Source: Patescibacteria group bacterium
GTDB taxonomy: Bacteria > Patescibacteriota > Patescibacteriia > UBA9934 > GWF2-40-263
Reading direction: 5' to 3'
Length of the DNA: 64,000 bases
Assembly (NCBI GenBank): GCA_004297215.1
Contig: SCUM01000002.1
Coordinates: forward strand, 70,270 to 134,269
Under the pieces are notes generated by a model. The model made no database searches, was not told the DNA's origin, and saw only the letters and a program-made list of their open reading frames with translations. Below are positions 2,550 through 33,979 of this stretch, piece after piece. Each line of letters starts with the position of its first letter. Within the stretch, counting starts at the first letter, position 1. The translations under genes and the position numbers were made by a program.

Positions 2550-3185
2550 TCAGGCGCGCTTATAAGTCTTCACGAGCGCTTCGAGCGCGGCCTTGGAGGC
2601 GACGATCGTCTCGTGGGACAACAGGTCGACGACGTTGAGGCTCCCGACGGAGATGGTGGACACGCGCGGCAGGTTCTTGGCCGCGCGGGCCACGCCCCGG
2701 TTCTCGGCCTCGACCACGATGAGGGTCTTCGAGCCTGCAAGCGGAAGCTTGGCAAGCATGAAGGCCACGCGCTTGGTCTTCGCCTCCGGAAGCGCGAGCG
2801 AATCCACCGCCACGAGCCTCTCGCCGGCCACCTTGTCGGAAAGCACCATCGCGAGCGCCTTGCGGCGGGCGGCGCGGTTCATCTTCACCGAGAAATTGCG
2901 CTCGCTGGTGGGACCGAACGTGACGCCTCCGCCCACCCAGATCGGGGAGCGGCGCGACCCGTGGCGGGCACGACCGGTGCCTTTCTGCTTCCACGGCTTC
3001 TTGCCGGTGCCGGCGACCTCGCCGCGGTCCTTGGTGTGCGCCGTGACCACGCGGGAGTTGGCGGTCTGGGCCACCACCGCCTCGTGCACGAGCGCCGGGT
3101 TCGCCTTCACCTCGAAAAGCGCCGGGTCGAGCGCGAGCTCGCCCACCTTGGCGCCTTCCTGGTTATAGAGGGTTACTTTTGCCAT
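2550..3185 (-). CDS. rplD: 50S ribosomal protein L4
   Basis: 211-aa ORF with the L4-like motif ...[34 protein letters not shown]...; its operon position (L3-L4-L23) is conserved. Confidence 0.94.
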   Translation of the reverse strand: MAKVTLYNQEGAKVGELALDPALFEVKANPALVHEAVVAQTANSRVVTAHTKDRGEVAGTGKKPWKQKGTGRARHGSRRSPIWVGGGVTFGPTSERNFSVKMNRAARRKALAMVLSDKVAGERLVAVDSLALPEAKTKRVAFMLAKLPLAGSKTLIVVEAENRGVARAAKNLPRVSTISVGSLNVVDLLSHETIVASKAALEALVKTYKRA

Positions 3186-11769: not shown

Positions 11770-11871
11770 AGTGTTATTCGTTTGGGCCGGTTATAAGGCT
11801 TCCCCCTGCGTAGAGGTACTCCGGCTTGATTCATTTTCACGAGATCCTTCGGACCTGATGGTCCTCAGGAT

Positions 11872-11892
11872 AATTCGGCCTAAGGCCGAATT
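11872..11892. repeat. Perfect palindrome AATTCGGCCTAAGGCCGAATT overlapping the rpsL stop codon
   Basis: The same TTCGGCCTAAGGCCGAA core recurs at 33876-33896, overlapping the rny stop. A related CCGGCCTAGGCCGG hairpin lies at 6498-6517. Confidence 0.55.
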
Positions 11893-12316
11893 ACTTCTTT
11901 TCCTTGGGCTTCTTTTGTCCGTACAGCGAGCGGCCGCGGCGGCGATCGGCGACGCCCTGGGTGTCGTAACGCCCGCGCACCACGTGGTAGCGCACGCCCG
12001 GAAGGTCCTTCACGCGGCCTCCGCGCAGCATCACGATGGAGTGCTCCTGCAGGTTGTGGCCTTCGCCCGGGATGTACGCCGTGACCTCGATGCCGTTTGA
12101 GAGACGCACGCGGGCGATCTTGCGGATCGCCGAGTTCGGCTTCTTCGGGGTCATCGTGGTGACCTTCACGCACACCCCGCGGCGGAACGGGCTCCCCTTG
12201 GCGAGTTCGGTGCGGCGGCGGTGGAGCGAATCGAGCCCGAACTGCATGGCGGGAGACTTGCTCTTCGCCTTTTGGGAGTGACGCCCCTTGCGGATGAGTT
12301 GAGAGATGGTGGGCAT
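11891..12316 (-). CDS. rpsL: 30S ribosomal protein S12
   Basis: [12 protein letters not shown]...[12 protein letters not shown]...[14 protein letters not shown], a classic S12. The start was trimmed to MPTIS. Confidence 0.93.
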
Positions 12317-18473: not shown

Positions 18474-19379
18474 CTAAAACGGCAAGGGGGCCGGTTCGAC
18501 GATCGGCTCGCCGCCGGAGCTGCGGATGAGGATGTCGCCTTGAAGGTCGGTGCGGAACGTCCCGATGCCGAGGTCGGCGAACCGCGCGAGCACTTCCTCG
18601 TGCGGGTGGCCATACGAATTCTTCGCACCGCAGGAGATGACCGCGACTTCCGGCGAAACGGCGGACAAAAGCGCGCGCGAAGACGAGGTGCGGCTACCGT
18701 GATGACCGGCCTTCAGCACGTCCACGTCGCCGACCTGCGCGGCATAGGCCACTTCCTCCTCGACTTCCGTGTCGGCGGTGAGCAGCACGCTCGTATCCCC
18801 GTAACGGACGAGCAGCACGATGCCGACGCGGTTCGTGTCGGAAACCGTCTTCCCGTCGAGCACGCCGTCGGGCCAGAGCACGTCGAACGTGACGCCGTCG
18901 ACCTTGAACGCGTCGCCGGCCTTCACGAGACGGCGCTGTGCCCCCTCGTCGCGGATTCCCTCCGAGAGCGCCGTCGCGACCCGCGTGTCCTTGATGAGCC
19001 CGGTCTCGTACACGGCCGCCACGTCGTAACGCGCGAGCACGGAAACGAGCCCGGCGACATGGTCGGAGTCCGGGTGCGTGGGGACGATCGCGTCGAGCGT
19101 GCGATCCGTGGGCGGCATCAGCTCCCCGAGCTTCGTGAGCACGGCGTTGCCCGGTCCGCCATCGACGAGGATTTGGCGCCCGTGCGGCGTCTCGATGAAG
19201 ACGGCGTCCCCTTGTCCCACGTCGAGCACCCATATGCGCAGATCGCCCGTCGAAGCCATGATCGGACGCCTGGCATCTGACACATACAATGCAAACGCGG
19301 CAGCACATGCGACGACGAGCGCACTAAACCCCGCGAGCGGAAACCATGTTGGGATCAAACGCTTCTCAAGCGACGCCAT
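18474..19379 (-). CDS. comEC: ComEC/Rec2 C-terminal metallo-beta-lactamase domain protein (separate ORF)
   Basis: An N-terminal TM helix, then WVLDVGQGDAVFIETPHG...PTHPDSDHVAG...GHHGS, which are MBL motifs. It overlaps the upstream ComEC membrane-domain ORF by 25 nt in a different frame. Confidence 0.8.
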   Translation of the reverse strand: MASLEKRLIPTWFPLAGFSALVVACAAAFALYVSDARRPIMASTGDLRIWVLDVGQGDAVFIETPHGRQILVDGGPGNAVLTKLGELMPPTDRTLDAIVPTHPDSDHVAGLVSVLARYDVAAVYETGLIKDTRVATALSEGIRDEGAQRRLVKAGDAFKVDGVTFDVLWPDGVLDGKTVSDTNRVGIVLLVRYGDTSVLLTADTEVEEEVAYAAQVGDVDVLKAGHHGSRTSSSRALLSAVSPEVAVISCGAKNSYGHPHEEVLARFADLGIGTFRTDLQGDILIRSSGGEPIVEPAPLPF

Positions 19380-20521
19380 AGGAAGAGGAGCGGAACCGTC
19401 GAGATGAGCGCGAGGACGCGCGCGTTGGGAACTGACACGCTCGCGTGCGGCACCGCATCAAGCCAAGAGACGACGTGGAGCATGAGGGAGGAAAGGGCCC
19501 AGGCGGGGAGAGCCAGAAGGGTGATAAGGGTCGGAAGGGTTTGAAGGGTGATGGAGGCGGCGAGGGCGATGATGCCGGAAGCGATGGCGTAGGGGACAAG
19601 TGGGAGGACGACGAGGTTCGCGATCGGGGCGATGAGGGAGACGGTGCCAAAGTGCCACAAGACGATGGGCATAGTGATCGCGATCGCGGCGAGGCTCCCC
19701 GCGAGCGACTCGCGCAACCCGAACCGTTCGGGAAGGAACGCGAGGCGTTCGCCGACGGGACCGGCCCAGGCCATCATCGCGTAGGTCGCCGCGATCGAGA
19801 GCTGGAACCCGATGTCTTCGCGCAGGAGCGTGGGATCGAACGCGAGCATGAGCGTGGCGGCAAGGAGAAGCGCGTTGTGCGGGCTGGCACGGCGGCGCAT
19901 GGTCTCGCCCAGGAGCACCACGCTCCCCATGATGGCCGCGCGCACGATGGCCGCTCCGGCTCCGGCAACGAAGACGTACAAGAGGAGCAGCGCCGCGGTC
20001 ACGCGCGTCCCCCACCGGCGGCCAAGCGGGGTGGTGATGACGAAGTTGAAGAAGATGAAGGTGGTGAGCGCCACGTTGCTCCCCGACGCGGATAGGATGT
20101 GGCTCAACCCCGTGGTGCGGAACGCCTCGCGCAACCCGTCCGGGAGCGCGGAGCTGCCGCCGAAGATGAGCCCGGTGAGGAATCCGGCGTACGGCTCGGG
20201 GAGTGCCGCGGCCATGCGTTGCCCGATCCATTCCCGCAGCGCCGCGGCCTCGGGCGGCACCGGGATCGCGAGCGCCGGCGCGAACGTGCGCGCGGCGCCG
20301 AATCCGAATGCCGCTGCCATGACGCACGCGAGCAAGGCGGAGCGCGAACGGACGGACAACGCGAACGCGGCGAGCAGGATCGCGACGATCCAGGTGAATG
20401 CCGGCGACACGACGGCCAGCAGCGGCCCGAGCGCGATGCCCAAGCAAAACGCGCTGAGGACCAGCGCGAGGCTTTTCGACGGAGACGAGGCGAGGGCCTC
20501 AAGCCTGGATGCCGACCCCAT
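19355..20521 (-). CDS. comEC: ComEC/Rec2 competence-domain polytopic membrane protein (N-terminal part)
   Basis: Multiple TM helices, with motifs ...LSHILSASGSNVALTTFIF... and ...ATLMLAFDPTLL... typical of the ComEC competence domain. The start was trimmed to MGSAS ('cat' at 20519-20521). Confidence 0.78.
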   Translation of the reverse strand: MGSASRLEALASSPSKSLALVLSAFCLGIALGPLLAVVSPAFTWIVAILLAAFALSVRSRSALLACVMAAAFGFGAARTFAPALAIPVPPEAAALREWIGQRMAAALPEPYAGFLTGLIFGGSSALPDGLREAFRTTGLSHILSASGSNVALTTFIFFNFVITTPLGRRWGTRVTAALLLLYVFVAGAGAAIVRAAIMGSVVLLGETMRRRASPHNALLLAATLMLAFDPTLLREDIGFQLSIAATYAMMAWAGPVGERLAFLPERFGLRESLAGSLAAIAITMPIVLWHFGTVSLIAPIANLVVLPLVPYAIASGIIALAASITLQTLPTLITLLALPAWALSSLMLHVVSWLDAVPHASVSVPNARVLALISTVPLLFLWRRLRSV

Positions 20522-21794
20522 AATAGGTGAATCCCTTTTTTGGCAAACCGAGGTCCGCCAGGAGGTTTCTCCCGTCGAACACGCATGGCCCGAGGAGGCG
20601 CTCGCGCACGGCGTCGAACGACACGTCGCGGAACTCGGCCCAGTCCGTGAGCACGACGAGCGCCTCGGCGCCGTCGCAGGCGTCCACCGCCGTGGGCGCC
20701 ATGATGATGCCGTCAGGCAACGCGTCGGCGGCCGCGCTCGTGGCCTGCGGGTCGTACGCGACGATTTCCGCGCCGCGGCCATGCAACGCACGCACCACGT
20801 CGACGGCCGCCGACGCGCGCGCGTCGCCCGTTCCGCCCTTGAACGCGAGCCCCCACACGGCCAGGCGGCGTCCCTTGACGCCGCCTAGCGTTCGTTCGAG
20901 TCTTTCCACGAACCGCTCGCGCTGACGATTATTCACGTCGATGGCCGCCGAGAGCAGTCGGAAGTCGTACCCGTTCGCTCCGGCCATGCGATGCAACGCG
21001 CCCACGTCCTTGGGAAAACAGGACCCGCCGTAGCCGATGCCTGGACGCAAGAAGTCCGCGCCGATGCGCGGGTCGGATCCGAGCACGTCTTCCACATCGC
21101 GCACGTCGGCGCCCGTGCGCTCGCACAGGTTCGCCATCTCGTTGATGAAAGAAACCTTCGTCGCGAGGAAAGCGTTCGCCGCGTACTTTGCGAGCTCGGC
21201 GCTCTCGTGGGACATGATGAGTCGCGGCGCCTCGATGCCGGCATGGAGTGAGTCCACGAGCGCGCGCGTCTCCCCGTCGTCGCTGCCGATCACGACGCGA
21301 TCGGGCTGGAAGAAATCCTTTAGCGCCTGCCCTTCGCGCAGGAACTCCGGCACGCTCGCGAGCCGCACCAGGTCACCCTTCCCCGCCCGCTCGAACCGTT
21401 CGCGCAGCGCCGCGGCCGTCCCGCACGGCACCGTGCTCTTCACGATGAGCAGCAGCGGGTGCGACAGGTGCTTGGCGATGTCGTCCGCCGCCGCATGCAC
21501 GAAGGAAAGGTCCGGCGCGCCGTCCTCGCTCGGCGGCGTGCCCACGCACAGGAGCGCCGCCTCCGCGCCGTTGATGACGCTCCCGAGGTCGCCCGTGAAC
21601 ACGACGCGCCCGGCCTCCTGCATGGAGCGCAACAGCTCCGGCATCCCCGGCTCGAAGAACGGCATCCGCCCCACGTCGAGCTTGGCCACCTTCCCCGCGT
21701 CCGCGTCCACGCACGCCACCCGATGCCCGAGCTTGGCAAAGCCCAGGGCATTGGCGAGTCCCACGTATCCGCACCCCACGACGACGAGGTTCAT
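20499..21794 (-). CDS. ugd: UDP-glucose/GDP-mannose 6-dehydrogenase family protein
   Basis: N-terminal Rossmann MNLVVVGCGYVGLANALGFA, the catalytic region ...GGSCFPKD..., and a C-terminal UDPG_MGDP_dh domain. The start was trimmed to MNLVV ('cat' at 21792-21794). Confidence 0.9.
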   Translation of the reverse strand: MNLVVVGCGYVGLANALGFAKLGHRVACVDADAGKVAKLDVGRMPFFEPGMPELLRSMQEAGRVVFTGDLGSVINGAEAALLCVGTPPSEDGAPDLSFVHAAADDIAKHLSHPLLLIVKSTVPCGTAAALRERFERAGKGDLVRLASVPEFLREGQALKDFFQPDRVVIGSDDGETRALVDSLHAGIEAPRLIMSHESAELAKYAANAFLATKVSFINEMANLCERTGADVRDVEDVLGSDPRIGADFLRPGIGYGGSCFPKDVGALHRMAGANGYDFRLLSAAIDVNNRQRERFVERLERTLGGVKGRRLAVWGLAFKGGTGDARASAAVDVVRALHGRGAEIVAYDPQATSAAADALPDGIIMAPTAVDACDGAEALVVLTDWAEFRDVSFDAVRERLLGPCVFDGRNLLADLGLPKKGFTYYGVGIQA

Positions 21795-21945
21795 ACGCGG
21801 TGAGATTAGCAAATGCGGCCCAAACGGCAAAGCCGCCCGATTCGGGCGGCTTTGGCGGTCCGGGCCCGAGCCTTTCGGCTCGCCAGCCGAAGCTCCGCAG
21901 AGCGAAGGATGGTGGACCCGACGGGAATCGAACTGACACATCAGT

Positions 21946-21985
21946 GTCATCCTGAGCGGAGGCCCTCAGGCCGGAGCGAAGGACC
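21946..21985 (+). repeat. Copy of GTCATCCTGAG-hairpin-(A)CGAAGGA repeat element
   Basis: GTCATCCTGAGCGGAGGCCCTCAGGCCGGAGCGAAGGACC. Related copies occur at 22044-22079 and 22397-22433 (opposite orientation) and at 28801-28839. Confidence 0.55.
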
Positions 21986-22043
21986 TTGGTCTGGAGGCCA
22001 CCGGACGTTTTTCTTCGGGATGACCATCTGGGGGGTCACCGAC

Positions 22044-22079
22044 GATGATCCTTCGTCAACCATTCAGACTCAGGATGAC
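22044..22079 (-). repeat. Copy of GTCATCCTGAG-hairpin-GACGAAGGATCATC element (downstream flank of GIY-YIG gene)
   Basis: The minus strand reads GTCATCCTGAGTCTGAATGGTTGACGAAGGATCATC. It lies 20 nt past the GIY-YIG stop codon. Confidence 0.55.
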
Positions 22080-22098
22080 AATGAAAAATCGGATGATA

Positions 22099-22395
22099 TC
22101 AATACAGATTACCACTCACGTCCGCCCAGATGGGATTCATCGAATCGATAAGGGCGATCTTTTTCCTTCGGACCCATCCTTTTATTTGTTTTTCCCTAGT
22201 GATTGCCTCGTAAGCCCCGGCGGATGCTTCGAAGTAGACCAGCTTGTTCACGTTATATTTAGCCGTGAAGCCCTTCACGACCTTCTGACGATGCTCGTAT
22301 ACGCGACGGACAAGATTATTCGTGATGCCCGTATACAGCACACGGTTGGTGACATTCGTGAGGATGTAGACGAAATATTGTCGGTCGTTTGCCAT
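22099..22395 (-). CDS. GIY-YIG nuclease family protein (98 aa, YhbQ/UPF0213-like)
   Basis: YFVYILTNVTNRVLYTGITNNLVRRVYEH is a GIY-YIG motif. The gene sits in a low-GC islet and is flanked by two direct copies of a 36-nt repeat. Confidence 0.85.
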   Translation of the reverse strand: MANDRQYFVYILTNVTNRVLYTGITNNLVRRVYEHRQKVVKGFTAKYNVNKLVYFEASAGAYEAITREKQIKGWVRRKKIALIDSMNPIWADVSGNLY

Positions 22396-22396
22396 A

Positions 22397-22433
22397 GATG
22401 ATCCTTCGTCGGCTGAGGCCTCCTCAGGACGAC
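22397..22433 (-). repeat. Copy of GTCGTCCTGAG-hairpin-GACGAAGGATCATC element (upstream flank of GIY-YIG gene, 2 nt from its start codon)
   Basis: The minus strand reads GTCGTCCTGAGGAGGCCTCAGCCGACGAAGGATCATC. Confidence 0.55.
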
Positions 22434-22478
22434 ATGAGTGTCGCCTTCATGGGCCCGTTTTCCAGGCCCGGGAAAACA

Positions 22479-22507
22479 AAAAAGACCCCCTCAATTTGAG
22501 AAGGTCG
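22479..22507 (-). terminator. Intrinsic terminator downstream of leuS
   Basis: On the minus strand, the GACCTTCTCAAATTGAGGGGGTC hairpin is followed by TCTTTTTTGTTTTCC. Confidence 0.5.
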
Positions 22508-22606
22508 TTTTTGTGACACCAGAGAAGTTCCCATGGAGGAACCCTTATCTGCTTAATGGCATTTCATCATGAAATCACCTTTCTGTCAACGGATGGCTGT
22601 GGATAG

Positions 22607-28738: not shown

Positions 28739-28800
28739 GGCGGGGAGGATACGGGAACGAAGGGTTTCCGTCAACGAAAATGACCCCAAAATCACCTGGG

Positions 28801-28839
28801 GTCATCCTGAGCCCCGACGTGATGTCGGGACGAAGGAAC
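28801..28839 (+). repeat. Copy of GTCATCCTGAG-hairpin-ACGAAGGA repeat element (between infB start and pilin-like gene)
   Basis: GTCATCCTGAGCCCCGACGTGATGTCGGGACGAAGGAAC. It is preceded by the hairpin GACCCCAAAATCACCTGGGGTC. Confidence 0.5.
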
Positions 28840-32323: not shown

Positions 32324-33877
32324 ATGGTATTCATCTACGCGATCGCGGCCGCGCTCCTCGGGGCCGCCGCCGGATACGGCGCCCGGCAGGTGCTGGGCAA
32401 GCGTACCCAGGACAGCGCCGAGGCCAAGGCAGAGAGGATCCTTTCCGAGGCGAAGTCGAAGGCCGCCGAACTCGAAAGCAAGGCGAAGCAGCAGCAGGGC
32501 GAGATCCTGCTGGAGGCCAAGAACCAGTCGCTCAAGCTGGTGGAAGACGCCAAGCGCACCGAAGCGGAGATCCGCAAGGACCTCACGGAGACGCAGCGCC
32601 GATTGGAAAAGCGCGAGACGATGTTCGACCAGAAGCTCCTCGAGCTCGAGGACAAGAAGGCCGGGCTCGAGACGCAGGAGAAGGACGTAGCCGCGGTCAA
32701 GGAAAGCGTGCTGAGGATCAAGGAGGAAGAGACCGTCCGGCTGCAGGCGATCGCCTCGCTCACCAAGGAAGAGGCGCTCGCGCGGCTCATGGGCAACGTG
32801 GAACATGACCAGAAGGAAGCGCTCATGGCGCGCATCCGCAAGCTCGAGCAGGAAGGCGAGGAGGAGCTCGAACGCAAGAGCCGCAACGTGCTCGCGCTCG
32901 CCATGTCGCGCTTCGCCTCGAGCGTCTCCGTGGACGGCACCACCAGCTCGGTGGAGATCCCGAGCGACGACATGAAGGGCCGCATCATCGGCAAGGAAGG
33001 GCGCAACATCAAGGCGATCGAGCACCTCACCGGCACGGAAATCATCGTGGACGACACCCCCAACGCCATCACCGTGAGCGGCTTCTCCCCGATCCGCCGC
33101 CAGGTGGCCAAACGCGCCATCGAGGCGCTCGTGAAGGACGGCCGCATCCAGCCGGCCCGCATCGAGGAGGCGGTGAACGAGGCCAAGAAGAACCTGGCGA
33201 GCGACCTCAAGAAGGCCGGCGAGGAGGCGCTCTACGCGCTCGGCATCCCGGTGTCGTCCATCGATCCCAAGCTGATCTCGATCCTCGGGCGCATGAAATA
33301 CCGCACGAGTTACGGCCAGAATGCGCTCCAGCACTCGATCGAGGTGGGCCAGATCTCGGCCATGATCGCCGAAGAACTGGGCGCCGACGTGTTCACGTGC
33401 AAGAAGGGCGGATTGTTCCACGACATCGGCAAGGCCGTGGACCACGACATGCAGGGCGCGCACCCGGAGATCGGGTACAACATCATGAAGAAGTTCGGGT
33501 TCACGGAGGAGCTCGCCTATCAGTCGATCGCCCACCACGAGGACCGCCCGCGCACGATCGAGGGCGCCATCGTGAAAGCCGCCGACGCCATTTCCGGCGC
33601 CCGCCCCGGCGCGCGCAAGCAAAGCATCGAGCAGTTCATCCAGCGCATGGAGCAGCTCGAAGCCACCGCCACCAACTTCGACGGGGTCGAGAAGGCCTAC
33701 GCCATCCAGGCCGGCCGCGAGGTGCGCGTGTTCATCAAGCCGGAAACCATCGACGACCTCGGCGCCTACAAGCTCGCCCGCGACATCGCCAACAAGATCG
33801 AAGCCGAGCTGTCGTATCCTGGCGAAGTGAAGGTCACGGTGATCCGCGAGACGCGCGTGATAGAATTCGCGAAATGA
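32324..33877 (+). CDS. rny: Ribonuclease Y
   Basis: An N-terminal TM helix, a coiled-coil, a KH domain (...MKGRIIGKEGRNIKAIE...) and an HD domain (...HSIEVGQ...HDIGK...). Confidence 0.9.
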   Translation: MVFIYAIAAALLGAAAGYGARQVLGKRTQDSAEAKAERILSEAKSKAAELESKAKQQQGEILLEAKNQSLKLVEDAKRTEAEIRKDLTETQRRLEKRETMFDQKLLELEDKKAGLETQEKDVAAVKESVLRIKEEETVRLQAIASLTKEEALARLMGNVEHDQKEALMARIRKLEQEGEEELERKSRNVLALAMSRFASSVSVDGTTSSVEIPSDDMKGRIIGKEGRNIKAIEHLTGTEIIVDDTPNAITVSGFSPIRRQVAKRAIEALVKDGRIQPARIEEAVNEAKKNLASDLKKAGEEALYALGIPVSSIDPKLISILGRMKYRTSYGQNALQHSIEVGQISAMIAEELGADVFTCKKGGLFHDIGKAVDHDMQGAHPEIGYNIMKKFGFTEELAYQSIAHHEDRPRTIEGAIVKAADAISGARPGARKQSIEQFIQRMEQLEATATNFDGVEKAYAIQAGREVRVFIKPETIDDLGAYKLARDIANKIEAELSYPGEVKVTVIRETRVIEFAK

Positions 33878-33896
33878 TTCGGCCTAAGGCCGAATC
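33876..33896. repeat. Perfect palindrome GATTCGGCCTAAGGCCGAATC overlapping the rny stop codon
   Basis: A second copy of the TTCGGCCTAAGGCCGAA core seen at 11872-11892. Confidence 0.55.
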
Positions 33897-33979
33897 ACCC
33901 TGAGCGCCATCAGGCGCGAAGGGTCTCGTGCAAGAACATAAAGACGGCCCGCGAGGGCCGTCTTCTTGATGCTCATGGA

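Follow-up and report, generated by a model that had tools for sequence, protein, structure and literature searches.

In a 64,000-nucleotide (nt) stretch of a Patescibacteria group bacterium genome (assembly GCA_004297215.1, contig SCUM01000002.1, positions 70,270 to 134,269; hereafter the window), we found that a small GIY-YIG gene bracketed by hairpin repeats very probably encodes a nuclease of the Ssn family, with the repeats as its cognate SRMs, on the basis of sequence and predicted structure; this would be a patescibacterial member of a known system. Ssn proteins are site-specific single-stranded-DNA nucleases whose genes are flanked by hairpin repeats, termed NTS or SRM, that are also dispersed through the genome (Chenal et al., Nat Commun 2025, PMC11893778). 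SsnA of Neisseria meningitidis (NMV_0044; 94 amino acids (aa), conserved domain cd10448) recognizes the NTS repeat solely in single-stranded form and cuts it a few nt upstream, being inactive on duplex DNA, RNA, and the reverse strand; binding depends most on the C that directly follows the palindrome, cleavage depends most on the three bases preceding the palindrome, and each of the substitutions Y6A, Y17A, and E64A abolishes cleavage (PMC11893778). An SRM lies near 71% of homologues and on both sides in 42%, SsnA reduces transformation by NTS-containing DNA, and the authors liken NTS-ssnA-NTS to an insertion sequence, drawing parallels with IS200/IS605 and with the REP/BIME/RAYT systems (repetitive extragenic palindromes, bacterial interspersed mosaic elements, and REP-associated tyrosine transposases) (PMC11893778). 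The original prediction, made from the letters of the window, had presented the locus as an undescribed element, which the Ssn/SRM system shows to be mistaken. The fitting annotation of the locus is accordingly an Ssn-family single-strand-specific nuclease gene with SRMs, in place of a cassette of unknown kind or a possible RNA, and the range of the family now includes a high-GC Patescibacteria genome. What is new here is the G·A/G·A loop in the hairpins, the three gene contexts of the cassette, and an empty site in Azospirillum.

The identification starts from the protein. The open reading frame (ORF) in question was called correctly by the original prediction: its 98-aa product matches Pfam PF01541 (GIY-YIG) over residues 6-79 (E=1e-16), with no second Pfam domain found besides it; an NCBI entry of identical sequence bears the name 'GIY-YIG nuclease family protein [Patescibacteria group bacterium]'. 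As the SsnA reference we used the 94-aa gonococcal ortholog, standing in for the N. meningitidis protein. The two share 45% identity over 88 aa without gaps (BLASTP, E=3e-28), a tblastn search of the N. gonorrhoeae record with the window protein gives E=2e-18, and the homology cut-off set in the paper (E<1e-10 to SsnA) is passed. Residues Y10, Y21, and E68 align with SsnA Y6, Y17, and E64, the residues mutated in PMC11893778, and these positions are invariant among 31 homologues. The AlphaFold2 model of the protein (predicted local distance difference test score, 92.9) has as its fold neighbors, in order, the UPF0213 protein 1zg2, structures of Slx1 (one of them a complex with 5'-flap DNA), and the N-terminal domain of UvrC, and a sequence profile built from the protein also picks up 1zg2 and 1ywl. 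Among solved structures, profile and fold alike place UPF0213 and the Slx1 nuclease domain nearest, and Slx1 cleaves at single-strand/duplex junctions of branched DNA; both are nevertheless distant in sequence, with 28% identity to 1zg2 and ~20% to the Slx1 nuclease domain against 45% to SsnA. Slx1 differs further in having a RING domain and a partner, Slx4, and we know of no repeat association for UPF0213.

In the N. gonorrhoeae record matched by tblastn, the 94-aa homologue is flanked by CGTCATTCCCGCGCAGGCGGGAATCTAG, a repeat that we take to be dRS3. The dRS3 repeat (ATTCCC-N8-GGGAAT) of the Neisseria dRS3/NIME arrays is the NTS core, and its hairpin/spacer arrays resemble those around ssn in other phyla; unlike the repeats of the window, it has an uninterrupted, GC-rich stem, and it was described long before a nuclease partner was known. 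Literature searches on GIY-YIG with repeats, REP, RAYT, MITE (miniature inverted-repeat transposable element), or hairpins returned nothing relevant; the link to the Ssn system came through dRS3.

The second line of evidence is the repeats themselves. The pattern ATCCTGAG-N(4-30)-GAAGGA occurs at four sites in the window, 11845-11871(-), 21949-21983(+), 22049-22076(-), and 28804-28837(+), against 0.04 expected, and none of 100 shuffles reaches four. A fifth copy at 22400-22434(-), which abuts the start codon and reads GTCGTCCTGAG, has one mismatch to the pattern, and a sixth at 33895-33930(+) was recovered by structure-aware scanning, for a total of six. All four copies listed in the original prediction are real, including the inverted one, and its repeat coordinates are right to within 1-2 nt; two copies, at 11841-11874(-) and 33895-33930(+), had been overlooked. 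The general anatomy is (T)GTC, a 5-bp stem, GA, a variable hairpin, GA, the complementary stem, and C. Both the 5' GTC and the 3' C are present in four of the six copies; the two that belong to composite elements (Table 1) have the C only. A covariance model seeded only on hairpins adjoining homologous genes in other phyla recovers five of the six, with its top match in the window at the downstream hairpin (22042-22083, E=1e-4), followed by 33895-33930 (E=0.012) and three weaker matches, among them the upstream hairpin (22395-22437, E=0.11).

The SRM features of the window comprise hairpins on either side of ssn together with dispersed copies elsewhere. Along the direction of the gene, the cassette runs from a hairpin (22434-22400) through the ATG and the gene to a direct hairpin (22080-22047), a spacer, and an inverted hairpin (21985-21945). 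The upstream copy terminates in GGATCATC, one base ahead of the ATG, and is kept, including its G·T first pair, in the two close relatives L201 and L202, whose Ssn proteins are 85% and 75% identical to that of the window. Its 3' arm, GAAGGA, sits 6 nt before the ATG and could double as a ribosome-binding site masked by the stem. The downstream hairpin begins 19 nt past the stop codon and makes up a convergent doublet with the inverted hairpin, 61 nt away (58 nt counting trailing bases); L201 and L202 have homologous inverted copies 3' of the gene, and the palindrome at its outer edge changes compensatorily between them (TGACAAC/GTTGTCA and TGACAGC/GCTGTCA). The gene lies in the AT-richer islet that the original prediction had noted, with a GC content of 0.48-0.50 across ~22000-22600 against 0.62-0.72 on either side, in a genome of 64% GC. 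The solo hairpin is antisense to both flanking ORFs, infB (Pfam IF-2) and a 151-aa ORF; the gap had been described as lying between infB and a pilin gene, of which infB stands, while no Pfam match was found for the 151-aa ORF.

Table 1. Features of the ssn locus and of related repeats in the window
Feature	Positions	Strand	Basis or remark
ssn gene, single-domain GIY-YIG nuclease, Ssn family, 98 aa	22099-22395	-	ORF, Pfam, and SsnA alignment
Upstream SRM hairpin: T-GTC / GTCCT / GA / GGAGGCCTCAGCCGAC / GA / AGGAT / C	22400-22434	-	gene's orientation
Downstream SRM hairpin: T-GTC / ATCCT / GA / GTCTGAATGGTTGAC / GA / AGGAT / C	22047-22080	-	gene's orientation
Inverted SRM hairpin, closes the cassette	21945-21985	+	covariance-model match, E=0.4
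Palindrome TGACAC-ATCA-GTGTCA overlapping the outer TGTCA of the inverted hairpin	21934-21949	.	read from sequence
Upstream block: TTGACA box, CCTCC-containing structured stretch, terminator, CCCGGG...GGAGGCGACAC	22435-22600	-	three-way alignment
Solo SRM-like hairpin, intergenic, upstream of infB	28800-28839	+	fold z-score -2.6
Composite element directly 3' of the rpsL stop: hairpin TTCGGCCTTAGGCCGAA, then ATCCT/GA/GGACCATCAGGTCC/GA/AGGAT/C	11841-11893	-	z-score -3.5
Composite element directly 3' of the rny stop, layout like that at rpsL	33876-33930	+	covariance model, E=0.012
comEC, Pfam Competence (ComEC/Rec2), E=1.6e-48	19355-20791	-	ORF match

To see how gene and hairpins go together beyond the window, we compared homologues, which were found at 53-66% identity across many phyla, in a sample of 80 homologous loci (L001-L080) from species-representative genomes. 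A strict scan, which required the 5' GTC and left the preceding T and the 3' C free, found 342 hairpins in these loci versus 4-8 in shuffled sequence. Hairpin density is ~5.75/kb within 250 nt of the gene, compared with 0.27-0.34/kb in other hairpin-bearing contigs, and 69 of the 80 loci have a hairpin at most 120 nt from the gene; most of the 11 loci negative in the strict scan show variant hairpins by eye. The predicted widespread, GIY-YIG-associated repeat is thereby borne out, and the idea of a REP/MITE-like unit tied to a nuclease is supported, in that repeats and gene form one functional unit. Within 100 nt upstream of the gene, 47 hairpins are gene-oriented and 18 opposite, and within 100 nt downstream the figures are 20 and 50. 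An inward-facing inverted pair around the gene is the commonest arrangement (28/80 loci); the flanking by direct copies singled out in the original prediction is true of the window and is a minority layout among its relatives (6/80). Hairpins mostly lie 2-37 nt before the ATG and 1-47 nt after the stop codon.

Across 340 hairpins, the positions left free by the scan have T before GTC in 85% and C at the 3' end in 98%; the GTC and the 3' C were found to be critical for cleavage and binding, respectively (PMC11893778). The stems vary, with the pairs ATTCT/AGAAT (82 hairpins), ATTGC/GCAAT (71), ATTTC/GAAAT (59), ATCCT/AGGAT (34), and ATTCC/GGAAT (32) leading a longer list of types at lower counts, and protein similarity follows stem type (64% versus 59% identity, permutation p=0.0005). 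For tools that act on single-stranded DNA, every pairing of a protein with its hairpin is a potential source of a new specificity. Classic NTS-type hairpins in a similar layout lie beside the Neisseria, Aeromonas, Azospirillum, and Shinella homologues, and those of Azospirillum, Shinella, and Aeromonas have uninterrupted stems.

The window system thus resembles the characterized Ssn/NTS-SRM systems in having a single-domain GIY-YIG protein of ~94-98 aa that keeps the catalytic Tyr, Tyr, and Glu, oriented flanking hairpins sharing the 5' (Y)GTC and the 3' C, many dispersed intergenic copies, a stem sequence that covaries with the protein, and an insertion-sequence-like layout. It differs from them in its host, Patescibacteria being a phylum unnamed in the main text of PMC11893778, in the 45% protein identity, in a stem broken by a 2x2 G·A/G·A loop with the usual C-GNA-G tip, and in that one flanking copy is direct, not inverted.

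Several observations weigh against the Ssn/SRM assignment. Identity to the characterized SsnA is only 45%, and activity in this clade is predicted by homology. The published SRM pattern, HGTCWYN(0-2)YYVSBRHN(0-5)WNVSBRGN(0-2)RNCYNB, scores 9 sites in the Neisseria locus but picks out nothing in the window and misses all 342 clade hairpins, because it assumes an uninterrupted stem and the stem of this clade contains the G·A/G·A loop; we therefore apply the SRM label because flanks, layout, and association with the gene are shared, and not by way of the published pattern. The copies at 11841-11874 and 33895-33930 are without the GTC required for cleavage, and each directly follows a stop codon in the sense orientation. 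Finally, the link to transformation leans on the Neisseria data and on the proximity of comEC. The same blindness of the published pattern means that a large multi-phylum clade with G·A/G·A-loop hairpins has been invisible to it, so that the counts of SRM-bearing genomes and the gene-repeat association (71%) are probably underestimates.

The Ssn/SRM identification can be extended to a cassette that is, or was, an autonomous mobile element, in which SRM-ssn-SRM (~0.4-0.7 kb) would move as a unit through nicking of single-stranded hairpins by the nuclease, and the gene-less convergent doublets would derive from it as non-autonomous forms, in the relation that REPINs have to RAYTs and MITEs to insertion sequences. 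This extension is compatible with the identification, and we regard it as quite possible, if short of probable. In its favor, the islet is of low GC in a high-GC genome, and a block of ~690 nt, running from the TTGACA box and terminator through the upstream hairpin, the gene, and the inverted hairpin to the palindrome, is common to the window, L201, and L202 but adjoins leuS and ugd in the window, recO in L201, and an H+-PPase gene in L202, with none of the neighbor genes of L201 or L202 occurring in the window. The prevalence of the inward-facing arrangement around the gene points the same way, as does variation in the number of units in hairpin arrays among related strains.

Filled and empty sites were found in Azospirillum. 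On plasmid AZO_p3 of Azospirillum lipoferum 4B (L325, 867-1483), ssn lies between sufB and sufC with a hairpin doublet on each side; A. oryzae (L329, 867-953) has at this position a hairpin-free empty site, an 87-nt spacer with flanks 95.7% identical, and in more than 10 further Azospirillum records the alignment is split in two, the middle of the query being missing. This pair is a clean filled-site/empty-site case for the family, an insertion polymorphism inside the suf operon, and together with the three contexts of the cassette it provides evidence for the mobility that PMC11893778 only proposed. Self-mobilization at the window locus itself is indicated only indirectly, by comparison of sequences; no empty site was found for this locus, a negative reached without a search at leuS-ugd.

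Hairpins without a gene bear on the same question. In metagenome contigs, an ssn homologue lies within 500 nt of just 4 of 79 hairpins (counting those whose contig extends 500 nt or more to either side), and none was found at 120 hairpin loci on viral contigs (IMG/VR). At least 120 viral or proviral contigs bear the hairpin, often as convergent doublets, at ~0.27/kb. Gene-less hairpins are mainly convergent doublets with a spacer of ~33 nt, the convergent orientation outnumbering the remaining three by 50 versus 6, 7, and 6 in metagenomes and by 43 versus 14, 7, and 6 on viral contigs, as would be expected of non-autonomous derivatives. The original prediction held that repeats occurring at random positions without nuclease genes would speak against a linked unit; such repeats do occur, but they are the normal state of this system. 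A search for an alternative partner gene, in which 459 ORFs beside gene-less hairpins were clustered, returned as recurrent families only an ABC ATPase (4 loci, probably by chance) and GIY-YIG.

Other observations speak against autonomous movement. GIY-YIG enzymes hydrolyze DNA, and to our knowledge no strand-transfer chemistry is known for them, so host functions would be needed to join strands. No target-site duplications were found across 114 doublets at three boundary offsets, an absence that also characterizes IS200/IS605 elements. The gene is found on either side of hairpins, with 41 of the 80 loci showing other arrangements. Two loci labeled Syntrophobacteraceae (L003) and Binatia (L009) are syntenic over ~4 kb at ~72% identity, ssn and hairpins included, with one doublet more in L003, and synteny at 72% flank identity implies long vertical retention of the gene while the repeats turn over. 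The ssn protein has no match among 50,697 phage records, and a homologue is present in just 33 plasmid records. A 430-nt indel between two Nostoc loci proved to be a coding-region difference unrelated to the hairpins.

The layout invites comparison with two known classes. Like REP/BIME sequences or REPINs with their RAYT (TnpA-REP), the system places a nuclease gene between short hairpins with a conserved unpaired 5' tag, has hundreds of gene-less copies that are typically inverted doublets without target duplications, and is chiefly chromosomal with some vertical inheritance. Ssn, however, is a hydrolytic GIY-YIG enzyme, whereas RAYT is an HUH/Y1 transposase and works through a covalent intermediate, and the SRM tag is GTC rather than the GTAG of REP; in place of the HUH/Y1 gene and GTAG tag that define REP/RAYT, we found only the GIY-YIG domain, the GTC tag, and no other recurrent neighbor family. 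IS200/IS605 elements likewise show strand-specific recognition of single-stranded end hairpins and are very compact, but the cassette is without TnpA or TnpB. A bolder proposal is that this Ssn clade, together with its G·A-loop hairpins, constitutes an active class of very compact mobile elements, with the doublets as non-autonomous members, which may act on ComEC-imported DNA in Patescibacteria. We consider this rather unlikely; if true, no earlier class of prokaryotic transposable elements would have depended on a GIY-YIG nuclease that nicks single-stranded hairpins.

Much less plausible is that the gene is a free-standing homing endonuclease that cuts gene-less host repeats and spreads into them through recombinational repair, in which case the repeats would be its targets and not its partners. 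Many GIY-YIG proteins are homing enzymes, the gene nearly always lies within repeat clusters while 95% of repeats are gene-free nearby, and its position varies relative to hairpin orientation. The window protein, however, is without a DNA-binding domain and reaches 16 bits with the model for group I intron endonucleases, TIGR01453, whose cut-off is 56, and the loci give no sign of high copy number, a second partial ssn copy occurring in just 2 of 80. Moreover, characterized Ssn members never cut duplex DNA and would not make the double-strand break that homing needs (PMC11893778).

The Ssn/SRM identification implies that the repeats act as folded single-stranded DNA, and their pairing fits this. 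As a test of pairing, metagenome and viral contigs were scanned with the three variable positions of the stem left free in both arms: Watson-Crick pairs fill all three positions in 267 of 287 instances, versus ~1.6% by chance, with at least nine stem types. Among 861 cells, mismatches at the free positions include 4 G·T and 6 A·C, and the equal scarcity of the two argues against selection acting on RNA. The seed alignment shows double changes in six of seven pairs, a result that weighs less because a pairing-aware scan chose the seed. The facing GA dinucleotides would pair as tandem G·A on one strand only, the complement being TC/TC, so the repeat would have a functional strand; tandem sheared G·A pairs arise in a Y-GA-R context such as these hairpins have. 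Hairpin tips are mostly C-GNA-G triloops (GCGAAGC, GCGCAGC, and CCGAAGG) rather than tetraloops of the GNRA or UNCG kind; triloops of this type are characteristic of stable DNA mini-hairpins, d(GCGAAGC) being a particularly stable example. The strictness of the complementarity, which avoids G·U, the strand-specific G·A loop, and the triloops together favor a folded single strand of DNA over RNA.

We give least credence to the idea that the repeats work as RNA, whether as leader or terminator, stabilizing hairpin, protein-binding motif, or ribozyme, and flank the gene for expression control only. The plausible ribosome-binding site in the 3' arm of the upstream copy, which the stem would mask, the sense orientation of the rpsL and rny composite copies overlapping stop codons, and an excess of sense over antisense among solo hairpins between co-directional ORFs (17 versus 8) would suit such a role. 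Against it, the repeats are mostly inverted pairs, of which half would be antisense; the solo copy at 28800-28839 is antisense to both its neighbors; G·U is about as scarce as A·C; the tips are not those of the common RNA tetraloops; and SsnA does not bind RNA (PMC11893778). An intrinsic-terminator reading of the hairpins was ruled out, the T-run being missing 3' of them. At gathering threshold, Rfam 15 returns only tRNAs over the window, and at E up to 10 nothing in 21800-22600 overlaps a repeat. The structured transcript or ribozyme suggested in the original prediction is thus left with no Rfam match, an almost complete lack of G·U pairs, and a protein family whose characterized member showed no RNA interaction in the paper's assays. 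A hammerhead ribozyme was also considered, as CUGAGGA in one copy is core-like; the other copies break the pattern and Rfam is empty there.

On the Ssn/SRM identification, family membership and repeat anatomy are features of the window itself, and the enzymology would carry over by analogy from PMC11893778. By homology to the Neisseria and Wolbachia enzymes, the GTC-bearing strand of each repeat would fold into a hairpin once the DNA becomes single-stranded; the Ssn protein would bind the stem plus the C just 3' of it and cut a few nt 5' of the GTC, leaving duplex DNA, RNA, and the opposite strand untouched. Single-strand-specific cleavage fits the repeats because they combine a strand-specific G·A loop, strict Watson-Crick covariation, and a conserved GTC and C. 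The layout would be SRM-ssn-SRM/SRM, with the gene inside its own repeats as in most family members, and the cassette itself would act like a compact insertion element. In this organism, we infer that the enzyme may cut SRM-tagged single-stranded DNA, such as ComEC-imported strands, and thereby shape recombination. The comEC gene lies ~1.3 kb downstream of ssn, two genes on and on the same strand, and ComEC is the importer of the single-stranded DNA that SsnA restricts in Neisseria; this proximity fits a role on imported DNA and is suggestive only.

The two composite elements differ from the other copies. Each starts exactly at the rpsL or rny stop codon with a first hairpin whose 10-bp stem includes the stop (TTCGGCCTWAGGCCGAA), followed by a second hairpin of the G·A type that is without the 5' GTC and ends CTCGTG. 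Between the two elements both stems are compensatorily changed, those of the rny element reading ACCCT/AGGGT and GCGCC/GGCGC. The composite copies may serve another role, possibly at the RNA level, which is conceivable because both are in sense orientation, or they may be bound but uncut.

Upstream of the cassette, the block between the leuS stop codon and the upstream hairpin contains an intrinsic terminator at 22484-22506 and a TTGACA that is invariant in the window, L201, and L202. It follows a different gene in each genome, leuS in the window, recO in L201, and the H+-PPase gene in L202. Rfam gives only chance-level matches to 22435-22600, and the block could be a leader or a small RNA of the cassette.

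Hairpin arrays at some homologous loci contain partial units. On Planktothrix agardhii plasmid p1 (L203), where ssn lies between an MmeI restriction-modification gene and the DISARM gene drmA, each complete hairpin is preceded by two to three tandem repeats of a unit made up of its 5' half and ~11 nt more (TGTCATTCTGAGT...) (2190-2250, 2820-2890, and 2950-3040). Similar nested half-copies occur in L001, L009, L020, L033, and L035, and they may be a footprint of repeat multiplication.

Just outside the inverted hairpin of the window, at 21910-21934(-), we observed a fragment resembling the 3' end of a tRNA, TTCGATTCCCGTCGGGTCCACCA, which includes the T-loop, the 3' halves of the T and acceptor stems, and CCA. 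The remainder of a tRNA is absent around 21910-21934, where ARAGORN makes no call, and the fragment resembles the attachment-site remnant of an integrative element. At the same position, L201 keeps only GTCCACCA.

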